This document shows, one piece after another, positions 4,679 to 64,000 of a stretch of 64,000 nt of DNA. This DNA comes from Yuukianura sp. NJ FZ-2021. Its lineage: Eukaryota. The notes under the pieces are model-generated. The model did no database searches, was not told the origin of the DNA, and saw only the letters and a list, made by a program, of their open reading frames with translations. The stretch is from the NCBI GenBank assembly GCA_046563655.1, contig CM102284.1, positions 3,100,001 to 3,164,000 on the forward strand. Reading direction: 5' to 3'. The translations under genes were made by a program, and so were the position numbers. Every line of letters starts with the position of its first letter. The first letter of the stretch is position 1.

Positions 4679-4713
4679 TTAGTAGCGGGGGACTCCTGGT
4701 GGGTGTCCAGCAA
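4679..4713 (-). CDS. mbl: mbl distal terminal micro-exon C ([11 protein letters not shown])
   Basis: actctag|TT GCT GGA CAC CCA CCA GGA GTC CCC CGC TAC TAA, phase 1. Matches the recalled Drosophila MblC C-terminus [11 protein letters not shown]. Confidence 0.9.
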
Positions 4714-7700: not shown

Positions 7701-10700
7701 TCTTTGGGTGTAATAAACAGTTTGTGAATATGAGAATTCAAAGGCGCAACTGGCAGTGGCTGGAGGCAGGGAAGAAAATCGCTTCAACCAGAATACAATA
7801 CAAGATTTTGGGTTTTTAGACTTAAAAAGATGAAACCCAGTTGTCAACAAAGATTAGCATTCAAAACCAACACTAAAGACGCAGTGGTCATTGGTTTGTA
7901 CTCAAATACAAAGACAACATGATGAAAACAGTGAGATTTTGCGTTGCTTTGCTAGGACGCCTAAAACTACAAATAAAAATACAAGTTAAAGTACTTCCGC
8001 TTCCAAGGCCACTTTGTGATCCAACGTGGTTGATCTCGAAACTGGCACATCAGGTCATTGGTCAACGTTAGATGCAGGAATGGCAGCGTCACGGTTGTCA
8101 ACTTTACATTAGAAGACTGCACGGCAGGTCTCGTTTAACCTTCGTGGACAGATGACAAGTGCAAGCAATTACTACGCAACAACTCTCGTTCAAAATGGCA
8201 GCGGCAGTGCAACAGTCAGAAAGTGAACAATGTCAAAAGTTTGGCTGCATTTCACTCAAATTGTAAAGAAGTGAAAAGACGATTTTAGAATGAATTGGTA
8301 CGCAAGTCAAATAAGCTCCAAATTTTTTGGCTCAAATTTTTTCGAAAAAATGAAGAAATTTGAGTTTCAACCCAATTCGATTCTAATTGAATTTCGTCAA
8401 ATCCAAACTCACGACGGGGGATACAAAAGGTTAATTAAAAATTTAAATTTAATTTAAAAATTAATTTTTTAAACAACAGCAGCCAAATACTTTTGACATT
8501 CAACTTTCTCACAATGGACGCGTAACAAATATGGCGTCCCTCCCCAAAAGCCCGCCTCCAAATGGCTCTCTAGACTTCGACTCAGCAGCACATGCTCGAA
8601 GATGCGAATTTACAACAACATAGAAGATCTAATCAGCATGGTCCAGGAAGAAATCTTGAAAACTGACAGTCGAACATCCTTAAAACGAATTTTAGAGGTA
8701 CATGAAATGCAGTGTGCGATAGGCAGCTTTTGATTTCGTATAAAACTGAACGTTACGCTTAACTTTTCTTTCTCTCGGTGAATTAAACTGATGGAGGGTC
8801 GGCAGAACAACTCAGCGGAGGCTAGTTAACAATTATGAGTAGCAGGCATACGGCGTGAAATTTTAAGTTTGGACCTACAGTCCGAATTTTTAAAAACGCA
8901 ACGCTGTCAGAGAAATATTGGTCACAGGGGGTCGGACTTGTGACATTACAACAGACATAAAGATAGGAAAATGAAGAATGTATTGTCAAGAATACTCAAA
9001 TGCCAATGCGATTAATTGTTTTTAAGTAGCTTATAGAAATAAAGGCAAAAAGAGCAATTTTCAATGCAACGGCAAGTGGCTTTTGGCTGGCAAGACAAAA
9101 AAGATTAATTTCATTCCCCCAACGTAAACTCCCTATAATATATCTAGAGCAAATCTGTTTACTAGCTTTAATAAAATTAACAATATTTCATAGATTAGAT
9201 TTCATTTCCTAATAGAATTTTTGAGTAGGGATAATAAGCAGAACTATTCCCGGATGAATATTTAACCTTTCATTAATTAATGAAAAGCATAGAAAAAAAA
9301 GTTCTGCCTACTTTCCCCTTACACCCATTGAAAAAGCTACAAAATCAAAATCTTTATAATAGAATTAAAAATTATATATTGGTGAAATAGCGATTACGCA
9401 ATTTAAGAAGTAATTGTTAAGAAGAAGTCATTCGTAGTCAATATACATTACAATTCCTTAATACCTACAACGTAAAAGTTAAACAAGAAACAAATATGTA
9501 ACTATAAATTTAACTGTCAGACCCTAATGTAGTACGTACAGTTTCAGTGTAGGCCTTCCTTTTCAACTTTTCTAAGAATAAAATCCTCTTTCAAAAAGTT
9601 TCAAACGAAGTATTGAAATTTCTCAACGTTATACACACAAAATCCATACTAACTTTTAAAATTTACAAGTAATTTTGTAAATCACTTTTACATTTTGTTC
9701 TAGAAGTAATAGGATCTCTACTATTAATTTTAGTATACTACACACCTTTCGGAGGAGTCCAACGCAAAAATTATTTACATTTAAAAAACCGAAAGAAAGA
9801 AAAAAGAACGGAATAAAAAATTCCAATTTTCTTATAAATTAAGTCAACAAACAGTGGAATGCTAAAAAGAAAGATTCTTCGTAAGAATTAAGTTCATTTG
9901 TAGAATATTCGACCGTTCCAGAAAACAATCTTTTTCATTTAAAATTTTGCTATTTTTGCTAGGTAATTTTGTATTTCAAACCTACGATTTCAAAAGTCAA
10001 TCTTTTTCTTTTAATCTTTTCACTAGTCATCAAAACTCTACAGAGCGCTCGCGCGTTTACAAACGCAGGAGGAAATTTAAAATGGGTTGAGGAACAAGAA
10101 GCGTTTTTCGTTTTAACCAGGGCGCATTCTCTTTACTCCAACTGCAGCCTGGAGTGGCGCAGCTCCCTGAGCAACTGGATTTCCAATGTAGAGTTGTTGC
10201 GTAAGCGACGGTGCTGCAGAGACAACTGGGACTGGAGCTCTAGCAAATTGACCGTAGGCCGCTGCAAGCAGCGCCTGTTGCTGCTGCTGACTCTGTTGAA
10301 GTTGTTGGATATTTGCCGCCGTCAGGCCCGGGGCTCCACCCAGTTGAAGTCCAAATGGATTGAAACCGGCTCCGGCTCCTGCCAAAGTCGGAACTTGGCT
10401 AAAAGCTCCCGCCACGCCGGCAGCAGCACTTTGTTGTTGTAAAAGTTGAGCTCGTTGGGCCGCTGCCAATTGCGGGAGTGCCGCCAAGTATGGATTCATT
10501 GCCAATGGAAATCCAGCACTCAGTTGCTGTCCTGTGAGCTGAGAGGCTGCTGCCGCTGATCCACCTTGTGTTTGAAATCCTTGCGATGCAAAAGCTGCTG
10601 CAGCCATGGCTTGCTGATACTGTTGCAGTAGTTGTTGTTGTTGATTCTGTTGCTGCTGCAAGGCTGATGCTGGGTACTGCAGTTGAGACTGAATGGAGGC

Positions 10701-13700
10701 CTGTGCCGTCGGTAGTGCTGCTGTGGCTCCTTTGGTCGCGTTTGCTTGAAGGGAAGCTCCTGTGTAAGTCATTGCCGCCATTGCGGAATGGTAGTTCTGT
10801 GCTGCTGCAGCGTAAGCAGAATTGTTTACCATAACGGCAGTAGCTACTCCTGAAGCACTACTAACTGCGTTGTTATTTCAGCGTCGCTTGGGGAGGGGTA
10901 ATTCCTCCTGCGTTTACGCGCATGCGCTTAACTAAAGCGTTCCCTTCATCTTTGGACTCCTCCTCAGTCCCATCACCCGAGACCCCATTGGCCTCTTCAT
11001 GCGCCCCAACATGGGCTCCACCGCCATCTTCTGTCACCTCAGCCTTCAGTTTCTTCAGAGCTGGTCCGTCGAGTAATTCAGTAGTGTCTGCTTGGAGTCC
11101 GTTTCCTTCTGGACTTGTGGACGTAGTCGCATGGACCGGAGATGCTGCAGCGGCTGCCTGAATCTGCTGATGGTGATGAATGGTCTGCTGGATGCTAGAG
11201 GCTGCGACAAACAACGGAAGTAACTACAACTAATTCAGGCTTTGCAAAATTGAGCTTGGCGAAGCAAACACGGTCAAAATGTATACAATTGTCGCAATTT
11301 ACAACATAGAAAGGAAGGAGAGCTTGTCCCTGCTAAGTTTCAGATCCCTCTACGTGGTTAAATGCAAGTGGCAAAGGAAGAAAGTTAGGCACAAATTGCT
11401 CTTTGGGTTTTCATAAGTTATTAACAGAAAAGTGAGGGAGTACTGCGGAGTTATTACTGCAACCAAAAGTGAGAGGGGAAAACTGAAAATGGCACTAAAT
11501 TATTCTGCTTTTTAGAAATCATGCAATGGCACTGAACTCTTATACTTATACACAGTCAAACTGTATTGGAAAGGGGAATGGCGTATTTTGGAAACTGATC
11601 CTTGCTATAATTTAACTAACTCCTCGTCAAATTCCTCAAGTTCCTTTGTTTTTTAAACGAAGTGTCGTTTTTCTCATAAAAAGTAAAAGCGTTTGACTTA
11701 CATGAAACAGGCACAAAGGGCTGTTGCAACTGCATCAAGTGTTGGTACGCTGCGGCCGAGGCGTTGTTTGGCTGCGGATACACTGGAACGCCGGTTTTCT
11801 CTGCTGGACGTTTATACGTCACCATTCCCGGGTAACTCTTCAGAACACAGAAAAAAATATATATCAATTAACTTTCCAAAACATTTCCATCAGCTTTCAT
11901 CCCTATCCCTGCATTTTTAGACGCTTCAAATCTAAATGTATAGTTGTCAAAATGTATTTTTAGATTGGAAAAAGTCTAAACAAACATTAAAGTGCAATTG
12001 TAGTCCATGTGCATCGCAAACGCATAACCATGCCAGGCCCAACCGAATGAAAAATTAAATATTAACCAAAATGGAAACATAAACGTAAAAAATATAGCTA
12101 TGGATGTTGTTTGGTCGTCTCGTACAAGTACCGTGGGTTGAGACGACGTTGTAGCCACTTTTGAAGTCGAATCTGGTGAATTTGGCGTCGGTGGGTCCGC
12201 TGCTGTAAGCTGCTGCTGCATATGCAACTGAAAGGGCCACTGCCACTGCGTTACAGGAATCCAGTAACACTGCCGCTGACCTGAATTTTGAACATGTCTC
12301 GCTGGTCCAAAGCGTTTCCGTTGGGAACCTGCCTGCAACATATCATCCCCACCATTCAAAGGTCAACATAAAACATAAGGAGGTATTCAGCCTTTTAAAA
12401 CAAAAAACTAAGGAAAGTCAAACTGTTCTGGATTCACTCTTTTCTCTGTAATGCTGAGAGACAGCTAAAAGCGGGAGCGTAAATCCCAAAGCAGAAAGTG
12501 TTACAGCAGCAGCTTCTTTTCATCTTCATTCTTCATCTCCCTCTGCTTAACAAAAGATCCCAAGAATCAACAAAGTCAAGAGGCCCCTCAAAAATAAACA
12601 TTCTGCCGTCTAAATACAAAAATCCACTAAAACCGTAATTAAATTCTGCCGCAGTCACGAGAACCAGACGCCAAACTACTTCAAAACTCTCGGATTCAAA
12701 AGATTTCACAGAGAAAGGAAAAAGACCAAGGCGTTTTTGTAAATACGCGGGAAATCGCGCATGAAAGAAGTCATTACAAGACACAGATATGTCTGTATGC
12801 ATTTAATCCCATCCATCGTACAATTTGTATCTTTTGCATTCTGTTCAGTGACTGGGAGTTCAAAGGTGATGAAGAATGAGAATTCATGAGTCTTTCTACT
12901 CATTAAGCTTATACAGATAGGGCCATTAGGTCCTTGGCAAGAGATTTACACTGCGGGTTAATTGCCCATTAGAATCAACCATTCATCCAAAGATCACCAC
13001 CAAGAAAAAGTCAAACAAACAAAATACATGCAACTTCTTTCTCATGCAACACAAAAGGCAAAGGTGTAACATAAAATTCAATGTGAAAACGACTTAAGAA
13101 TTTAAAATTACTGACCAGGAAAATTATAAATTACTAATCACAAACTTTTTTTAGTTGTGCAAAATGTTCGAATTCGAATATAAGAAAACCGTTCAAGCTG
13201 TATTTCATGCAAAGCTAAAGCAAATGACTGGACACAACTTTTTGTATACCGAGAGCGATGAATTAAGTCGGTAAACAATTTGTAGACAATTTTGAATAAA
13301 GAATTCATAGTAACACAATTCGCAGCAACCCAAACCTCGTACCCCCCGCAGTAAGTAGCATGCAATTTTGGCATGCAACAAGTTTCAATTACTTTGAAAA
13401 CTCACACAATATGTTGAAGAAAATTGGAGTGTCATCAAAATTCAACCAAAGTTCGAACGTTTAAAAAGTCAACAGAGAGTAGTGTGAATCCCAGTAAAAA
13501 CAACTGGCGATGCATATGCTTATTAATAGCATGCTTATTCATCGTTCCTAATTTGAAAAATTGGCGGCTTCTGTTCATTCATTTTGTGAAATCACAAACT
13601 GACATTGACAAATGCACTTCGATTACGTTGAAACTCAGACTTTATAAGACGCTCAAACGGCTCACATTACTCAGTTTTTACTGGGAAGCACAGTACTCTC

Positions 13701-24312: not shown

Positions 24313-27300
24313 GTTTTCTCCGGTTCCGAGGAAACAGGAGTCCTTTTACAAGACAAAATCCACACAGCCCAGCAACTCCCCTGTAATCAAAACACAAGCA
24401 ACAAATTACTCAACTTCTGAGCCACTCCTTCATAAATAAGTTATGAATAGCACTCTCTAATTCAATGTCAAAAAGATGACGAGATCCATGTCAACTTGTC
24501 AACCCCCTTCCCCCTACTAAGTATTGGACGAAATGACACACAACAAAATCCAAAATCACAGACTCTGTGATTTTGAATTTCGTTGTGTCATTATGTATGT
24601 GACATGGGTGAAAGACAACAATCTTTCCAGTTCCTGGAAATGAAACAGAGGAAACAAATCTCATCTCATCACCAAATAGTCTGATTCTCATCTGATATTT
24701 TTTTTTCAAAATTGTAATCCCACGAACGCATCTTCCTCCCCTCTGCTTATAAACCAGAAATCCGAAAAGAAAATGGAAAGATGAAGAAACAGGGAAGATC
24801 AAAGATAAGATACGCAGAGGGCACGTTCCCGACAAACAGAGGATAATATAATAACGAAAACAAAATTACTTTATCCACCCTACCAAATATGGTTTACAAA
24901 AAAGAAACAGTTTTCTACAGTATAATTTAATAAAAATAGTACAAAAGTAACAGCACAATAACATATAAACGCAAAACGAGATTAGCTCCAAGGAATTTTG
25001 GCGTGCACTATTTTCAAAAAGCCACAAACTTAAAAAACAAAACTTTTGTTTTGCGGTTAGTGCAACTCCAAATCCTGTTCAATAAACCGAAAATCAAACA
25101 CACAGTGTCATTTCCTTCCAAAAATAATCAAAACCCAAAGAAAAAAATTCTTGACGTTTTCAATTTGCAAAAGTTATTCAAACCGTAACAACCTTTTGGT
25201 AATCCTGGAGAGTAGAGTCGGAACTTTATTGGGATAAAAATCAAATTACTTTCTTTCCTTTCTCTTCTACACGAATGACTCTCTCTTTGGTCTTTACAAT
25301 CTGCCTAATTCACTTTCACTTTCTCCCAATTCCGAACTATCGGCAGATTCAGTAAAAGTCCACTTTTGTTTGACCAAATTTTGACCAGAGATGCGCCCTT
25401 GTGACTCTCATGTGTCAAACTAACTTGGGAGAACTTTTCCTCTGAGAAGGAAAATGACAAAGTCCAAGTTCAGTGGTAGAGGAAATGAAACTCCACTTGG
25501 GTGGAGTTCCCTCGGAGGATGATAAAACCTCTCATAAAACCACAAGCACAAGCTCTCCCCCTTACAACTTATTTCTGCACTCTTACTCAAAGTCGCAAAT
25601 TCTATTTTTCGCCAACGGAAGCACAACCAAGCTGGATTATGGCTAAAGTTCTCACAAAAAGTCCATAATATAAAAGTAAAAACTGAACACAAGCAGAGTT
25701 TAGTCAATTGAACTCTATTTTCTCTCCCTTTGCAAATAAAATGGATTTCCGTGGCGTCGACAAGTCTCAATGAGGCTCTAAAAATTTTTACCCTCTTTCC
25801 TATTCTATTGAAAGGGCGAAATTAGAGTTTCTCCCTCTCAAATTCACAGAACGTCCAAAACTTCCAAAAAATTTACAGCCAACCAGCAAACAAAAAAAGT
25901 GCCATAATTTTGGCAACGTAAGATAAGCTCTCCCCTCTCACATGAGGTCATTTTGCTCCCCTCACGCCAACGTAAATACACTTCAAAGCTTTTCGACCTG
26001 CCATCCATAGCATGGGTACGAAATAAACACAATAATAAATGCCATACCGAGAATGTCTCCCATTTCTAGTCCACTTTCTCCACATTCATCACAATAAAAA
26101 CCACATCATATACATAGCAGGTATATCAGCAAAAACCTGTCAAACATTTACCTAATGTAATCTAAAATTTACGTTAACCTTATATTCAATTATGCCCAGC
26201 TGATTTGTAACTGCTTAGATTAGGATACTAAGGACCAAGTTATGTTAATCGTAAACTGAACTTAAGAGTAAGAATTTGCGTTTTTCGCAGGTTGACCTGG
26301 ATCCATAAAACAAAAGAGAAAAGTCAGACGGAGAAAGTCAGTGGCTTTGGAAAGTCCTGCGTCCTGGCCTATACTGTAGATCTGTCAGCTGGATCTATTT
26401 GCCAAAGTTGTCTGGAATTGGCAAATGGAGGGATCGCATGTTAATTGTCCCCCAACAGGACCAACTCCAGAGCTCTCCATCACTCACTTTCAACGTCAGT
26501 TTCTAGCGTTGCCCATTTCGAGTCCATAGCTCTTGGTTCCTAATGAGCCCTAAATAGGGAAAAGCTCCAAATGAGAAAGACTCCACCTTTGAATTAATTC
26601 CAACCCAGCATGAAATACACACTACCAACTCAACGCAAAAAAACAATGAGTGAAAGTGAACTCAACGATCTGCTGGCATGCCAAGGCGCCTTTCTCCCTA
26701 GGGCTTAAAGACCTACTTCAAAATTGAAATATGACCAATTGCGCCTTTCAATTACTCTAATTCAAGATCCGTGTCCCAGGGAGTCTGCAAGAGTCCCTGC
26801 AGGCCCTTACTCGTCATCAGTTCTGTCTAGGAGGACTTTGTGATGGAGAAAGTGAAGTTCTAATAGATGGATTTATAGTCAAATCCATCTCCAATACAAC
26901 CAACGGACTTTTGTACAAATATTAAGGGAATAAGGCTCTCTCTGCTGGAGAAAGAAAAAGAAATGTTGATGGGAGTTTGGATCATAAAATGGAGTCGTAA
27001 AAGAGAACGAGCTCCTCGTAAAATCCTACGTAAAGGAACCACCCCACCCCTACCGCCCCACCCACCAGACTAGCCGGAGCCACCGAAAAATTATTCATAA
27101 TTCCCACCACCCCTCCCCATTGCCACACGCCTCAGTTTCAGCCAAAAATAACACAAGACACACTTTCTCCTTCCTTTTCAAACCAACTGTAAGACGAATC
27201 CTAAACTTACAGCATTTAGGAAACTTTTCGTTTAGAGTAAAAACAAGCCTGATATGAATCCAATCTGCAAAAAATATCAACTTTCGCTTTGTTTGCAAAA

Positions 27301-31944: not shown

Positions 31945-32552
31945 GTAGCACGCCACTGTTCCGAAAGAATTACCACGAAACCAATTGCTCCGACAAGTAA
32001 ATTGTTAAAAAAACAGGTTGCTCGGAGCAATCTGTTTTCGGAGCAACTGGCTCCGGAACCGGAACTGACTAAAATCAAATAAACTTAAACTTACGTTTGA
32101 GGCGGTAACGTATGATCTTCTGCTGACCTTGACCTGAGTATGCTCTCCCTTACCGAACAAATGACAAAAGACTGGAAAATGACTGGAGACTGGAGAGGTG
32201 TAGACAGAGGAGATCTGTACAGAGGTTGAGGTGTTTATTGAGACTACCCCTTAAAAGTTTCCCTATCTCATGATTTTGAATTGTGTTCCCGCAGGGGTCT
32301 CACCTTACCCCGTTGCACGTTAATGTGCGTAGGGTTTAGCAGGATATGCTATAAATTATAAGGTTAGATTTGGTTTAACACTAACAGATGTTACATTTGG
32401 TTGAGTTATGGTATAAGGTTGGGCTATATAAGACCGCTTTCGGAGTAATCGGTCTTTCGAAGCAAATCACCTTTGGAAGCAGTTGGTTTCGTGCAACTTC
32501 ATTCGGAGCAATCGGTTTCGTGCGAATTCATTCGGAGCAATGGCATGGAATC
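31945..32552. mobile_element. Foldback-type non-autonomous element, copy 1
   Basis: Ends gtagcacgccactgttccgaa / ttcggagcaatggcatggaatc, with periodic ccgaa/ttcgg sub-repeats. Same ends as the copy at 38658. Confidence 0.7.
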
Positions 32553-38657: not shown

Positions 38658-39027
38658 GTAGCACGCCATTGCTCCGAATGAATTCCGTCGAAAGCAATTT
38701 CTCACAACAGTGAATTTCTCCGGGAGGCTAATTCCTCCGAAATTTAACCAATCCTGCATTAAGCTGATTACATTAAGCGATGCTTAGGTTAAAAACATAA
38801 GTTAAGTTTAGGTTTTTGCTAGGCTAACAACTATAAAATTACGCAGTGGTTGTGCTGTAATCTTGGTTATGCGAGTAATCAGGTTACGATATGTTTAGCA
38901 AATAAAAGTGTTTTCGGAACAGAGCGCCCTTTGGAGTAACGCGTAGTTTGGAGGAATCGGTTTCTTAGCAATTGTTTCGCAAGTATTTCCTTTCGGAGCA
39001 ATTCTTTCGGAACAATGGCATGGAATC
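38658..39027. mobile_element. Foldback-type non-autonomous element, copy 2
   Basis: Ends gtagcacgccattgctccgaa / ttcggaacaatggcatggaatc, with a ttaggtt-rich core. Confidence 0.7.
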
Positions 39028-52227: not shown

Positions 52228-52627
52228 TACGATGTGGTTGATTATTTGAACTTGTGTGTTGCTTCTGATGCTAAATGACTGAGATGACAGAAATTCGATC
52301 CGGGTAATTTTTCCAAGATGGAGCTGACGATTGCTCGCTCGAATGTGAGTCTAAAGTGAATCCTTCTTGCAGAACACTGCCAAGGAGCTATGCTCCAACG
52401 CCACCACCAGCACCGGCTATTCCGCCTTACTGGAACTGAAAATGTGACAAAAACCAAAGAAATTAGAACTATTCCGTAAACAAAATATATAATGAAGGAT
52501 CACGCTGCTGTGTATGGTTACCGTGGAGCCGTAAGGACAACTTTTAAATCATCGAAATACCTTGCATTCTTACAATCTACTATAATCAATCTAAGGAATT
52601 TAAAACAAATAATGACTTCAGTCAGAT

Positions 52628-53118
52628 CAAGGTAACTAAACATAAATACACATGAGCTTTCTAAGGTAGTCTCACGAGCTGGTTTTTAATATTTTTTGGC
52701 GATATTTTTTGGTGGGGCGGATTGTTCGGTTTCCAAGGAAATAAAACTGTATAAAATTCATGCAAAGGTTGGTTGAGGTAACAACGATGTGTTAGTTGTA
52801 CCCAGCGTTCAGTATTTTAGGCAAATCAACTATTTGTCATTTAGTTGCATTGAATTCGTAGTAATTATAAGCGTAAAATTTGTTTACTTCATTTTCCAAT
52901 CCTAAAATCAATGTAAACCACTAGCACGATGATTGGGTACATTGGATGGTCACAATGGAGGAATTTTATTTTGTACTCCGCCCGAAGGAAAACGTTGTCA
53001 GAGGAATGTTTAAAAAACAAACAATCCGCCCCACCAAAAAATATCGCAAAAATAGCTGAAAAAACCGCTCGTGAGACTACCTTAGAAAGCGCGTGTTTGT
53101 TTATGTTTAGTTACCTTG
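52628..53118. mobile_element. P-superfamily-like MITE with ~100-bp TIRs, 491 bp
   Basis: TIR starts caaggtaactaaacataaa and ends tttatgtttagttaccttg. 8-bp TSD agtcagat (52620-52627 and 53119-53126). Confidence 0.85.
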
Positions 53119-53202
53119 AGTCAGATGATTCCGTTATATTTAAGTTAAGGTGTGCGGACACCCTGGAAACTGGGGGTCAAAATGCCGCTGTAACACCGCC
53201 AC

Positions 53203-53484
53203 GCAAAAATGGTTTTGGTCAGCGTAGAAATGTCGTACAGTGACCTACAATATATCAAACTTTAGGCAAAGACTTGATCTAGTACTATTACGTTGCAAAC
53301 TTATTTAATTCCAAGTGTAACTATGCAGAAAAAGGGGCTGAATATTTGTGTCCATTTTTTTCATTGTTAGAATTATAATTTCATAATTTTAAAACGTAAT
53401 AGTACTAGATCAACTCTTTTCCTAAAGTTTGATATATTGTGGGTTACTGTACGACATTCCTACGCTGACCAAAACCATTTTTGC
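53203..53484. mobile_element. Long inverted repeat (92-bp arms), MITE/foldback core
   Basis: 53203-53294 is nearly the reverse complement of 53393-53484. No clear TSD found. Confidence 0.8.
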
Positions 53485-56470
53485 ATTTCAATGTCGCAGC
53501 CTCAGAAAAGTTGTTGACAAAACCCAAACGACGGCAACCGAACTTGCGTCAGTTTTGTTTGTTTGACAGTGCATACTTTTTTTTTATCAAGGTATTTGCA
53601 CTGATCCTTTTTCACCACTCACGAGGGTGTTTCTTTTTGTCGATGTCTGCAACTTTTACTAACTACACAAGCTCGGTTATCGTGGTTACTAAATTTAACG
53701 ATTATTGTTTATTAGACGCATAACACACGTCCTTAATAACTGCTGCAAAGTAGTAGCATGGCTCCATGTTCTTGTTCCCTTTACCATTCCTTTAAGCAAG
53801 ATTTATCATTCCTCATTCTTACTGGATGTCATCCTTAAGCCTTAAGCAGTAAGCTAGACGAGTTTCTTTATGGTGGGCAGCAAAGTCAAATTCACCCCAT
53901 TGACCCGACCTGAACTTGAGCAGCTTAAGCCATTCTTCCGTAACGGAATTCCCGTACGAAAAACTCGGGGTCGGGATGACCAAATCGTTGTCCAATGTTA
54001 CAAGGAACTTACTGACTACTATTAATTACACAATTACACAATATGTACTAAACTAGGGTTAACTTACCGACTCCAACTGGAGATACAGTTTCTCATTTAA
54101 TTTTGCTCCACCCTCTGACTTCACGATCGGAAACGTTGACCCACCGTATTTTATCGGCAACAAATACAACAGTACTTCAACTTTTAGCTTGTAAACTTCA
54201 GTTTATCGTGACAACAGCTATTACATCGGGTATCGTATGCTTCTCTTCTGAAAAGGTAACCAGAAGTCTGAACTAAAGACAGAGGACAATGGAAATATTT
54301 TGGTTCAGTAATCTGAAATCTTCAATTGATCTTTGGTACACCTAGAATATTTTTTACACGTTACAATGACACAACCAACGGTGGGCACTCATAGACCTTA
54401 TTTTCTGTTAAGCATTTAATGATTTCACGTTGATTTTTAACGAACATTTTAGCTTATGGTATACTGCGTTCCCTTAGTTTGAAATTAAACAAAGAAAGCT
54501 CATAATTCAATTTCTGAGAAACTGTAAATGAAAACTGATGAATTTGGTTCTGCCCACCTTTAAGTGCGGCATTGAGTGCTCTTGGTCGTGCTGAAACCTA
54601 TTAAATGCACCCTGTAAATACTTTCGTCGCAGTAAACGCATATTACATCTATTGTAACCACAAATTGTGACTACATTTTATAAACTCTCACTCGCTCGAT
54701 AGTTAAACTACGAAGGCTCAACTCAAAAACTATAGTTAAACTAATCTAACTTAAGGCGTAGTAGGTCTAGGAAGTGAGAAGATCGAATGTAAAAAGGTCG
54801 TAAGTGAGAAGGCCGGAAAAGATTGCAACATCAAATGGTCGACGAAAGGTAAAATGGTCGAAAATTAAATAGTCGCACACAAAAGGTCGCTACATTAAAA
54901 TGTCGAAAAGTGGATGGCCATACCTTGAGTATAGTAATTGTTAGATTAGACTTAACGTGATTAGTACTACATTGAAGACAATTCCGGTTGACGTTAACCA
55001 TTCAGCGACAGGTAAATGTGGAAGTAGGGGTGTGACATTTCGTCAACAAGCGCGGATGAAAAACTTTGGACATGAAGGGACGACGCTCTGGTTTCTAACA
55101 TTTTGGGAATCAATAGGTCATGCCCGTTCCAACGATATGCTACTTGCATAGCGTCGTCATAGGATGACATGGTGACCTGCTTTGACCCCTCGTATCCCTT
55201 GATCTATCGTTTCTAGGGATTTGAAAATTTGCAGAAATGATGCAACTTTGGAAAAATTTCATTCGAATCGCACTAGCGATGATTTTGATCGGGTTTTGGA
55301 CCATTCCCTTTTCATCTCTGCGCCACGCCAACCCACTCATTATGCCGCTGGAATTTGCGGAAATGACGGGGTTTTACAGACTAGAATGCGCCGTAAATAG
55401 TTAACTGATTACTACGGTATGAAACTAACTAGTCTTGTTGGTTTTGAGCAGAATTATGTCATTTTTATTGCTGAAACATGAATAATCACTGCACTTCAAC
55501 GTTTTCAAAATCAACTCGAACGAGAACGATAAAAAAAAGATAAAAAACCCACGCCAAGTTCAATGCATTACCATTATACAACTGTAGTAACTTTTATAAG
55601 CTTTGGCTTCCCTACTCTCATCATCACTGATTACGAGCATCAAATTCAAGTACTGATTCAGTGGACATTAGAACAGGTTATGTGCCAGTGCCGTTCGCTT
55701 TCTCTTTTTTTTTATCTTGTCAGTCCTCACAAGGCAAAAGCAGAATGTAAAAAGTAAAAAAACGCCACGGAAGGACCACAGTCACAAGTCGCCCTAACTT
55801 TCGCAAATTTTTTTTTACAAGTTCGGGATCGGCAGAAGTCATGTGAGATACAGCCAGAGGGTGTCCTATTTTGAACGTAAAATGAAAATGATTCCTACCC
55901 TATAGCAAATTTCGCAGACTCCACCTACCTCAACGACCGGCCTCGGAAGTCGTCCCATTTTCCAAAAAAAGACGAAGTTTCTCCTCGTGACAAGACGGGC
56001 TATAGTGAAAGTCACCAGGGAGAAAAGGTAAAGTCACTCACTTGAATTTTATAAAGTTTAGCAGGTTTACAGGCTATGCTGGTGATGGTCCGTCTGAAAT
56101 TCTGAATTACCTCAACTTCTTCTCCACTCATTAGTTCGGTTCTGTTCTTTGCCCGATTTAAACCTTTCACTCACATTCAATATCGGTCAATTTCTATCAA
56201 TTTTTAAGAAGACTTACCAAGGAAGCATTTCCCAATAATGGATCGACAACTCGTACCCCTGCTTCGCCATAACATCAATAGCTCGTTCAGAGTTTCTGGA
56301 ATTCTGGACAGTTAGCATAGGAGTCACGGCACGGCCCACATCATGATTCATTCACTGATTCACTTGTCACTTATTAATCCTTGATTCTCGACAGACACGT
56401 CAAAGAAGTACCAAAGGAATTACAATTAGTATTATACGCGCAGTTTGCAAGTTAAGTCCGGTTGCAAACG

Positions 56471-62475: not shown

Positions 62476-64000
62476 GTACAAAATAAAAAAAGTAGAGCCG
62501 GTCGTAATGTCGACCTTATATTTTATTGCATTCCGACGGGCGCGGGCGAGGAAAACTACAAGATTTGTATTATCCCGAACCCGGTTCCAGATCTGGAATC
62601 AATCGGGACAATACAAATCATCATCGCACTCTGGCCATAGGGCGATGATGAAAAAGTTTTTTTAAAAAAATACACTTAATTACTAATTCCCAGCATTGGC
62701 AAATACCAAGCATTGACAATGGATTTTTAATAGCATGAAAGAATTCTCGTACGTCTTGTCCAATGCAACGGACTAAAGCCCAAATATCAGTCTACAGTGT
62801 TAAACACCGCAAAATCGTTTAAGTGGAATTTTTTTTTTAAATTTGCGATTTCTGGGGAAGATTGAAAATATACAACCCAAAGTTTGAAAGTATAATACAA
62901 CCTTTGAGTTTGTTGTTGCCTACTTTTCGCTGAACAGCACTGTAATAAATTGTCCATCCTGCGTTTGAATGCGTGACATTAATTGCGGATAAATGGAAAT
63001 CTCATTAGACGCTTCCAAAGGTTTTATCAGGAAACAGGATCAATAAAAAAAACTGAATCAGAATTTCGTAATTGTGAGGGTTAGGATAAGTTGATTTTGC
63101 GGATGATTCGGAGTTAAATGGCGTAATTACATGGGTGAGGGACAAAGGGCCTTCGAAGTCCTTTCTCTGACAAGTGACAGTTGAATTATGGTCCATGGCT
63201 CTTTTATCACTCCCTTCAATCCCACTTCCCACATCACTACTCACACTCAAATCGGTCGCGTGCCGATGCCACAAAAATGAACCACTTGAACCTCTTCACA
63301 GGCCCTTTGTGTAACAATCGAAAGGAGGAGCAGGACAAGCTACTGCCACAGGCGTCGTCTCTCGGCCACTTAATTGATACACGCTGAAAATGTACGGAAA
63401 CCATTCCTCGGTCTAGTTCACAATCCTAGGCTGTGTTTTCAATTCCAGGGGGTGGCTATAACTACTGGAAATCTGGAGAGGTCATCAAGTGTACATGAGG
63501 TCAAAGTTCCGGTGGCACTCCAAAGGAAATTTAGTATTTGACAGATATTCCCAGCGAAAACTATAGTGACAAACCAACTTCGGCTAAATGATTTATTCTA
63601 TTTCATTGACAAACTTTATCCTCCAAGATCAAGGGCCCTTTTGAAAGGTAGATCCAAGGGCTAAGGGCTCTTGATAAGAATCTCCGTGTTACTGGGAAAA
63701 CTGTTTGAAAATTAAATTGTCGTATTGCACAGCTCAAAGTGTGGGAACAAACTGATAAAATTATTTATATTCTTTGGCATTATTTTTTTTCAAATTGTTT
63801 TAAGGAAAAATATTTAAAAAAAAAAGTAAAAAATACACAGCAGGAAATATTACCTACTTCAGTTTTTATAATTTTTTGCACTTCGAAGGTTCGATTACTT
63901 ACTTAGTTATTAATATCATTCAAAAACAAGCTTTTTCAAGAATTTGTTGTTTTCAGTCCTTTGCGTTGAACCATGCGATATGTGACGCGTGAAAGCGATA

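Follow-up and report, generated by a model that had tools for sequence, protein, structure and literature searches.

An inverted repeat at the 3′ end of a springtail-like hexapod muscleblind gene: a candidate long-range RNA stem with near-chance statistics

The closest described counterpart of the structure considered here is found in Drosophila Nmnat, where intron 4/exon 5 carries conserved complementary boxes (Raker et al. 2009, PMC2724269). As presented in the main text of that report, the boxes form a long-range stem in a gene whose C-terminus depends on the choice between a distal exon and an internal terminal exon that carries a poly(A) signal of its own, and the stem is backed by conservation and by mutational tests. 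Muscleblind/MBNL proteins, in turn, are described as master regulators of alternative splicing whose C-terminal isoforms differ in localization and activity (PMC2238819). A cis-acting RNA stem that set the Mbl C-terminus would, if real, represent a new regulatory layer for a disease-relevant gene family, and a functional stem in mbl would extend the Nmnat paradigm beyond Drosophila.

Other systems offer partial parallels. Base pairing selects among alternative exons in Dscam exon 6 and 14-3-3 zeta, where one docking site is contested by several competing selectors and the exons are internal and mutually exclusive. In ADAR substrates with an editing-complementary sequence, an exonic site is rendered double-stranded through a remote complement; such complements are usually intronic and nearby, and efficiently edited sites typically present an A opposite a C. 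A purely mutational precedent also exists, since template switching is reported to generate reverse-complement copies from which RNA hairpins arise (PMC5453318; bioRxiv 10.1101/2021.04.15.439925).

In the window analyzed here (the whole 64-kb stretch of DNA), a real 27/31-nt inverted repeat lies in the 3′ part of a springtail-like hexapod muscleblind gene, in its long terminal coding region, and on paper the transcript could close an 827-nt loop by means of a 26-bp interrupted helix. Like Nmnat, the mbl locus would combine a long-range stem, here a predicted one, with a choice between a distal exon encoding a different C-terminus and an internal terminal exon that has a putative poly(A) signal. 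In mbl, however, the 5′ box is coding and lies within the terminal exon past its strong acceptor, so that the only acceptor enclosed is a cryptic and hypothetical one. Unlike the docking/selector genes, mbl has a single pair of arms in the window, and its exons are terminal; mutually exclusive splicing of the docking/selector type was rejected after a 14-mer search of the window that did not return several selector copies. Compared with an editing-complementary sequence, the complement in mbl is remote, lying in the 3′ UTR at a distance of 830 nt, and the predicted helix is limited to 26 bp and has an A.A mismatch. With the products of template switching (PMC5453318; bioRxiv 10.1101/2021.04.15.439925) the repeat shares an isolated, sharp-ended reverse-complement patch that can pair without any prior function, whereas the mbl arms lie ~830 nt apart and differ from exact reverse complements by a 4-nt insertion and two substitutions in the copy.

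The initial annotation knew of no such duplex described for mbl, and a search of full-text literature likewise found no description of a long-range structure in this gene. The main texts of PMC2724269 and of its 2026 follow-up (PMC13092977) do not mention mbl, although Drosophila mbl could be listed in their supplementary tables.

The muscleblind gene and its long C-terminal tail

The gene on the minus strand is muscleblind, as initially proposed from its sequence; both the protein matches and the exon map bear this out. Matches at E<=0.001 were obtained for 1028 of 1034 protein candidates, and among those listed with a source name most are called muscleblind or muscleblind-like. The hallmarks of the family are present in the form of collinear CCCH zinc-finger exons, an exon of the pattern YPGMV...KRP...FVPVS, and a tail of the MblC type, GHPPGVPR[FY] (Table 1). 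The junction of E4 with exon A reads FVPVS-S-SSIQQT..., matching the FVPVS-S-TSIQHS junction of the springtail Allacma fusca, and use of AG 10866-10865 would place ORF B in phase with the same donor (FVPVS-F-SSASG...). Each of the three acceptors, A (11201), the putative B (10864), which has a purine-rich tract, and C (4713), keeps the reading frame when joined to the phase-1 E4 donor. The gene model, in which a single donor faces three acceptors in phase with it, the two conserved halves of the long tail occupy different frames, and the distal exon is of the MblC type, constitutes the firmer result of this analysis.

Table 1. Features of the muscleblind locus and of the inverted repeat (positions in the 64-kb window)
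Feature	Positions	Strand	Description
Conserved exon E4	11702..11837	-	ends QQPFVPVS + T; donor T|GTAAGT, phase 1
Exon A	10873..11201	-	acceptor AG 11203-11202 through ORF A to stop TAA 10875-10873
5′ (upstream) arm on the mbl transcript	10902..10928	-	coding, A frame; KRMRV common to Allacma P0121
A-to-B frame-change interval	10863..10901	-	TGA (B frame) 10880-10878; AAA-TAA-C (A frame) 10878-10872; weak AG 10866-10865
ORF B, second half of the long Mbl tail	10113..10864	-	ends ...GVKRMRPG + stop
Competing local partner of the 5′ arm	10801..10821	-	imperfect helix, -22.8 kcal/mol; prevails in 2/8 folding contexts
3′ (downstream) arm	10044..10074	-	CpG-dense patch after ORF-B stop; holds bulge GUAA and UGUA 10061-10058
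3′ half of the 14-bp perfect helix	10061..10074	-	pairs with 10902-10915
ATTAAA	10010..10015	-	first poly(A)-signal-like hexamer past the ORF-B stop; pattern match only; 28 nt downstream of the 3′ arm
Distal terminal exon C	4679..4713	-	MblC-type tail and stop; acceptor AG 4715-4714, in phase with E4 donor

ORF B had been regarded as an alternative terminal exon. The weak in-phase AG on which that proposal relied is present, but an independent exon B is doubtful, since Allacma has A and B fused: in its proteins P0121 and P0122, A-like and B-like sequences form one continuous ORF that is collinear with the window. The segment is most likely the second half of a single long tail-coding exon. In the window A and B occupy different frames that meet at AAA-TAA-C, and because the Allacma counterpart is one collinear ORF, the apparent stop of exon A may reflect a one-base frame discontinuity, whether genuine or introduced during assembly, and not the limit of an isoform. 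With 254 open codons and 44% identity to the Allacma tail (E 6e-47), ORF B itself must be translated somehow. A small intron connecting A to B in frame was considered, and 113 GT/GC-AG combinations leave an open frame, yet this route was rejected. The combinations with canonical GT donors all cost the protein a conserved stretch: donors upstream of KRMRV delete that motif, and donors 10933 and 10918, joined to acceptor 10796, delete AYAAAAQ. The remaining combinations rely on weak GC donors.

Allacma fusca is the only relative found, and exon A is recognizable only through collinearity with it. A protein search with exon A in the "longer" length class gave no match, a comparison with 1.84 billion protein representatives gave only two, which were read as low-complexity, and none of 120 insect Mbl proteins was matched in a blastp search. 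Metagenome scans with ORF B and with the alignment of the window and Allacma found no orthologous DNA.

The inverted repeat and its predicted helix

The description of the two arms as inverted copies was confirmed by sequence inspection, a repeat search, and RNAduplex. On the plus strand, the 31 nt at 10044-10074 are the inverted copy of the 27 nt at 10902-10928, with a perfect core of 14 nt (10061-10074 with 10902-10915, 100% complementary) and 827 nt separating the arms, in agreement with the loop of ~830 nt given initially. As RNA of the minus strand, the arms form 14 perfect bp, a 4-nt bulge GUAA (10060-10057), and then 12 of 13 possible pairs, comprising 11 Watson-Crick pairs and one G-U, with one A.A mismatch. 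The computed duplex energy is -46.1 kcal/mol (RNAduplex). The value on the opposite strand is the same, and because there is no strand asymmetry, nothing specifically indicates selection on the transcript.

Read in the A frame, the 5′ arm specifies K-R-M-R-V-N-A-G-G, and 36-37 nt separate its end from AG 10866-10865, so that its proposed coding content and its distance of ~37 nt from the weak AG both hold. The KRMRV part is common to Allacma, whereas NAGG(I), encoded by the perfect 14-bp half, is replaced there by QNVGSGG. The boxes flank the in-phase AG of putative acceptor B together with ORF B, but not the strong acceptor A at 11201. The 3′ arm begins 38 nt past the ORF-B stop (10115-10113) and is indeed the isolated GC-rich patch noted at the outset, with 58% G+C and 5 CpG inside a stretch of 35% G+C. 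Both arms fall within the 0.29% most CpG-dense 31-mers of the 64-kb window, which form 27 clusters, and the similarity between them breaks off sharply at the arm ends. A search of the window with the 14-mer, allowing <=2 mismatches, returned the two arms and one weak 2-mismatch match at 62953, 52 kb away. Two UGUA motifs can be read from the sequence, one in the bulge (10061-10058) and one just 3′ of the arm (10042-10039). No Rfam family was found in 9000-12000 at E<=1.

Folding was predicted in eight sequence contexts. The helix has a pair probability of 0.97 in six of them, including 9990-11201, which extends from acceptor A to just beyond the putative poly(A) signal and is the most meaningful context for the prediction. 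In the other two the probability is <0.01, and helix formation is therefore not robust. A local hairpin of the 3′ arm, which had been put forward as a possible switch, does exist in the predictions, but it is weak, with an energy of -10.2 kcal/mol and a probability of ~0.35 in one context.

Chance level of the complementarity

Comparison with shuffled sequence had been proposed as the check on the duplex. The excess of the duplex over shuffled sequence is marginal across the window. For the energy control, duplexes spanning up to 3 kb were collected throughout the window and in 100 shuffles (block-wise, dinucleotide), which together yielded 6 duplexes with an energy of -46.1 kcal/mol or lower. 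By gapped alignment score, 44 inverted repeats scoring at least as high as the observed one occurred in 150 shuffles, and 32 of the 150 contained at least one. In the unshuffled window, 26 seed pairs score at least as high as the mbl repeat, mostly overlapping seeds of two large foldback repeats, and there are 26 ungapped inverted pairs of at least 24 nt; every entry ranked above the mbl duplex belongs to one of four other loci. The repeat is thus statistically unexceptional for a 64-kb window. In a targeted test defined post hoc, in which the 150 nt before the AG were paired with the 150 nt after the stop, 12 of 2000 shuffles reached the observed energy or lower. Statistical support is weak to marginal, improving only in this targeted test, and the repeat is at present a candidate with near-chance statistics.

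Origin and possible roles of the duplex

The reading preferred here, held with about even confidence, is that the repeat is fortuitous or was created by mutation and has no role. The complementarity would have arisen by chance or through a small inverted duplication, in which template switching copied the coding arm into the 3′ UTR; we infer both this mutational origin and the lack of function, whereas the repeat and its predicted duplex are firm. The sharp end of similarity at the arm boundaries is what a copy event would be expected to leave, although a spacing of ~830 nt is far for template switching. Weak window-wide significance on two measures (6 per 100 shuffles; 32/150), the many inverted repeats of similar or larger size elsewhere in the window, the 27 clusters of similarly CpG-dense 31-mers, the equal energy on both strands, and a helix prediction that changes with the folding context all point to the absence of a role, as do the lack of conservation in Allacma of NAGG(I), encoded by the perfect half, and the single ORF formed there by A and B. 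Against it stand the fairly strong targeted test (12/2000), the probability of 0.97 in the 9990-11201 context, and a suggestive geometry, in which an in-phase AG follows the 5′ arm at 36-37 nt while the 3′ arm is placed between the stop and the first ATTAAA; moreover, an old and neutral island of high G+C would be expected to decay in an AT-rich UTR. The same geometry and targeted result, together with the helix in 6/8 contexts, lend some weight to a stem of the Nmnat type, which is considered unlikely but is the foremost of the functional readings. Pairing in the pre-mRNA would sequester the branch-point zone and the weak AG 10866-10865 and loop out ORF B near the poly(A) signal, shifting the choice among acceptor A (11201), cryptic B (10864), and distal exon C (4713) and thereby setting the Mbl C-terminus. 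Such a role would suit three acceptors in phase with the phase-1 donor of E4, a 3′ box 28 nt upstream of ATTAAA, and an ORF B that needs some route to translation (254 open codons, 44% identity to Allacma), and introns containing complementary boxes are described as enriched for weak acceptors and for alternative acceptors coupled with poly(A) signals (PMC2724269). However, the strong acceptor A, which defines the terminal exon, remains outside the stem, because the 5′ box begins only within exon A, at 273 nt past that acceptor; a hypothetical acceptor B with a purine-rich tract is all that the stem encloses, Allacma shows only the fused A+B protein, and the window-wide statistics (6 per 100; 32/150 shuffles) weaken the case further.

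If A and B are one exon, as Allacma suggests, both arms would stay in the mature mRNA, where a duplex between coding sequence and 3′ UTR might act on the terminal exon or on the message itself; this is judged improbable, more so than the Nmnat-type stem. By exposing or masking the UGUA motifs, the helix could tune how often the ATTAAA site is used, or it could serve as a double-stranded platform for a Staufen-like protein or Mbl itself, affecting stability, localization, or translation of the long isoform. UGUA is a CFIm site, and the two copies of this motif, along with a 3′ arm 28 nt upstream of the first ATTAAA, are consistent with the former; on the other hand, translating ribosomes would open the 5′ arm, the window-wide statistics are weak, and the region has no Rfam family. 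Slightly less probable still is ADAR editing directed by the 3′ UTR arm, which would render the KRMRVNAGG codons double-stranded and allow an NLS-like motif to be recoded by deamination (e.g., at AAG, AUG, or AAC). The predicted 26-bp interrupted helix does span coding adenosines, and recoding would have consequences since KRMRV is conserved in the protein, but the helix is short for ADAR, and its lone unpaired adenosine (10923) faces an A (10049) rather than a C, all other adenosines being in A-U pairs. Should the frame break be real, ribosomes might cross it by a programmed +1 frameshift at AAA-UAA-C (10878-10872), a heptamer that serves +1 shifts in Euplotes, with the long-range helix as stimulator or regulator. 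Its 5′ arm stops 23 nt short of the shift codon, which would allow the helix to pair again once the ribosome has passed, and a single mRNA would give rise both to a short protein A ending in KRMR and to full-length A+B in a ratio set by structure; this is very unlikely. A MITE-like mobile element with the arms as terminal inverted repeats would account for sharp boundaries and arms of ~27 nt, and TE-like foldbacks occur elsewhere in the window. The conserved KRMRV encoded in one arm and the absence of further arm copies in the window (14-mer, <=2 mismatches: the arms and the weak match at 62953) speak against such an element, and it is effectively refuted by an 827-nt interior that is ORF B, conserved coding sequence homologous to the Allacma Mbl tail.

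Gene model of muscleblind

Muscleblind (mbl) is carried on the minus strand. Its 57-residue zinc-finger exon matches 1028 of 1034 candidate proteins, with a best identity of 93%, and the source-named proteins among the matches listed are mostly muscleblind or muscleblind-like. Downstream of the fourth upstream exon (E4), three AGs are in phase with its donor. The second of these, candidate acceptor B, had been called weak in the initial annotation, and the purine-rich tract upstream of it bears this out. Because the first ATTAAA comes after ORF B, the region holding ORFs A and B would be a terminal exon of internal position, with exon C, whose MblC-type conservation has been described (PMC2238819), as the distal alternative. 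About 230 nt upstream of E1 lies a near-perfect 25-nt palindrome (24538-24588; 92%, 1-nt spacer).

Features of the mbl locus
Feature	Position	Strand	Description	Basis
E1	24312-24127	minus	contains start codon	tblastn
E2	14142-13972	minus	zinc-finger exon	tblastn
E3	13883 to ~13722	minus		tblastn
E4	~11837-11702	minus	ends ...QQPFVPVS plus one T, then GTAAGT; phase-1 donor	tblastn
Acceptor A	first exon base 11201	minus	reads FVPVS-S-SSIQQT...; agrees with Allacma junction FVPVS-S-TSIQHS	
Acceptor B (candidate)	AG 10866-10865, first base 10864	minus	reads FVPVS-F-SSASG...	
ATTAAA, poly(A)-signal-like	10015-10010	minus	first such hexamer past ORF B; 28 nt beyond the 3' arm of the inverted repeat	
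Acceptor C	AG 4715-4714	minus	short tail then stop, the ancient MblC-type tail	

ORFs A and B in the C-terminal tail

ORF B is similar to the latter half of the long, Q/A-rich tail found in insect Mbl isoforms, with common motifs including AQ-NY...YTG; it ends in VKRMRPG, versus ...YKKMKT[ST] in the insect long isoforms. Searching a protein database with ORF B (7999 candidates scored) gave just two proteins, which belong to the springtail Allacma fusca and are collinear with the entire gene (identity 94% for E1, 90% for E2, 69% for E3, and 72% for E4). Allacma residues 350-659 align with the B frame (10862-10119) at 44% identity (E 6e-47), and residues 240-345 align with the A frame (11208-10903) at 26% identity (E 0.18), a match that is weak alone but collinear and takes in KRMRV. 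In Allacma a single uninterrupted ORF encodes both the A-like and the B-like part, and four residues stand in place of the 40 nt and the frame change of the window. This match suggests that the window comes from a springtail, or from a near relative, whose own proteins are absent from the database. The initial annotation had B as a separate alternative terminal exon; the in-phase weak AG is indeed present, but the single Allacma ORF weakens the premise. K-R-M-R occurs twice in the tail on the minus strand, as VKRMRV mid-tail (10917-10928, within the 5' arm of the repeat) and as VKRMRPG at the very end (10122-10133). Both sites are conserved in Allacma (KRMRV and VKRLRPQ) and may be NLS-like.

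The frame change falls within 10863-10902 of the minus strand, at CTG-AAA-TAA-C (10878-10872). The A frame terminates ...CTG AAA TAA (stop 10875-10873) and the B frame is blocked just upstream by a TGA (10880-10878); a one-base difference could therefore fuse the frames only within AAAT (10878-10875). A reading of candidate intron combinations yielded no canonical intron that fuses A to B in frame and keeps the conserved residues. ORF B must be translated, because it is open over 254 codons and clearly conserved. Two routes to it appear about equally likely: the extra base would be an assembly error or recent polymorphism, with A and B as one exon, or the weak AG at 10865 would serve as an alternative acceptor, as initially annotated. 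A +1 frameshift at AAA-UAA-C could be a third; in Euplotes, AAA-UAA reportedly serves as a motif for +1 frameshifting (PMC5011710, PMC10952039). In sandflies, the predicted Mbl isoforms P0040/P0041 and P0045/P0049 are distinguished by the choice of acceptor within the long tail exon (FVPVS-S-NPIAIV... in one pair, FVPVS-CEYPSPSP...TANPIAIV... in the other), so that annotations of other insects already include alternative acceptors internal to this exon.

Geometry and chance expectation of the inverted repeat

The inverted repeat that drew attention to this region was recovered with exact placement. On the minus-strand transcript, 10928 to 10902 (the 5' arm, coding sequence of exon A) pairs with 10074 to 10044 (the 3' arm, past the ORF-B stop) over a spacing of 827 nt, in the arrangement first described: 14 perfect bp, a 4-nt bulge, and 13 positions comprising 11 Watson-Crick pairs, one G-U, and one A.A. 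The bulge, GUAA (10060-10057), sits in the 3' arm, and the duplex energy of the two arms is -46.1 kcal/mol (RNAduplex). Arm-to-arm similarity breaks off abruptly at either end. The 3' arm is a patch of 58% G+C with five CpG in a surrounding stretch of 35% G+C, and both arms fall within the top 0.29% of window 31-mers by CpG density, which form 27 clusters. Nested outside the main duplex is a 12-nt perfect inverted repeat, GGAGGAGTCCAA (9751-9762 / 10952-10963; -25.3 kcal/mol), one arm falling in the coding sequence of exon A and its partner about 250 nt past ATTAAA; by a rough hand estimate, about 0.1 perfect inverted 12-mers are expected by chance in the 2-kb region.

The repeat exceeds chance expectation only marginally. 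Inverted-repeat seeds up to 3 kb apart were ranked by duplex energy across the window, with 100 dinucleotide-preserving shuffles in 1-kb blocks as the null; six duplexes at or below -46.1 kcal/mol arose in these shuffles. The entries outranking the studied duplex all come from four other loci (53.2-53.5, 52.6-53.1, 42.6-42.75, and 32.0-32.5 kb). By gapped alignment the repeat scores 18.0, and 44 repeats scoring at least as much occurred in 150 shuffles, 32 of which held at least one. An inverted-repeat search of the window found 26 ungapped inverted pairs of at least 24 nt. When the 150 nt upstream of the AG at 10865 were compared post hoc with the 150 nt after the ORF-B stop, 12 of 2000 shuffles lay at or below the observed energy.

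Folding depended on context. The helix appears in both the MFE and the centroid structure of a 931-nt fold (z = -2.19, 20 shuffles). It forms with a pair probability of about 0.97 in six folding contexts, among them 9990-11201, from acceptor A to just beyond the putative poly(A) signal, and of below 0.01 in two, 9900-11050 and 9800-11260, where the 5' arm pairs locally with 10801-10821 (-22.8 kcal/mol) instead. The opposite strand gives a duplex just as stable, so that strand asymmetry is lacking. No Rfam family matched over 9000-12000.

Origin of the repeat and other inverted repeats

As it stands, the repeat is a candidate stem with near-chance support. A fortuitous or mutational origin, to which we give roughly even odds, is favored because the statistics are weak, the folding is context dependent, strand asymmetry is lacking, and the residues specified by the perfectly paired half of the 5' arm, NAGG, are not conserved in Allacma. 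The abrupt ends of the arms, their rare composition, and the isolation of the GC patch are consistent with a small inverted duplication, in which the constrained coding arm would have been copied to the UTR; template switching is a described source of reverse-complement copies (PMC5453318; bioRxiv 10.1101/2021.04.15.439925).

The main rival, by analogy with Drosophila Nmnat, would be a stem acting over long range in splicing or polyadenylation, which we regard as unlikely. [quoted passage not shown] The layout in mbl agrees in several respects, but its 5' box is part of exon A and comes 273 nt after the strong acceptor A, whereas the Nmnat boxes surround the proximal acceptor. If functional, the mbl stem would join the long-range splicing/polyadenylation stems; no description of such a structure in mbl was found in full-text literature searches or in the main text of two papers on conserved Drosophila boxes. 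Two UGUA motifs, one within the 3' arm and one adjoining it, would suit a duplex between the coding region and the 3' UTR with an effect on 3'-end formation or on the fate of the mRNA, UGUA being the CFIm site, yet such a role seems improbable. An ADAR complementary sequence is more doubtful still, as the sole mismatched adenosine lies opposite an A, and transposon ends are a negligible prospect, contradicted by the alignment of the interior (ORF B) to the Allacma Mbl tail.

A second, intronic stem of similar strength is predicted in mbl at 13475-13501 / 13674-13700 (27 nt, 89% complementary, 172 nt between arms, -44.6 kcal/mol), its 5' arm starting some 20 nt past the E3 donor. Two large foldback inverted repeats at 53187-53500 (149-nt arms at 83%, 16-nt spacer) and 52627-53119 (106-nt arms at 88%, 281-nt spacer) are probably situated in an upstream mbl intron and look like transposon-type elements. 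Between 31949-32547 and 38662-39022, 6-7 kb apart, inverted matches of 75 nt at 72%, 42 nt at 83%, and 41 nt at 78% resemble the terminal inverted repeats that would bound an intronic element of about 7 kb.
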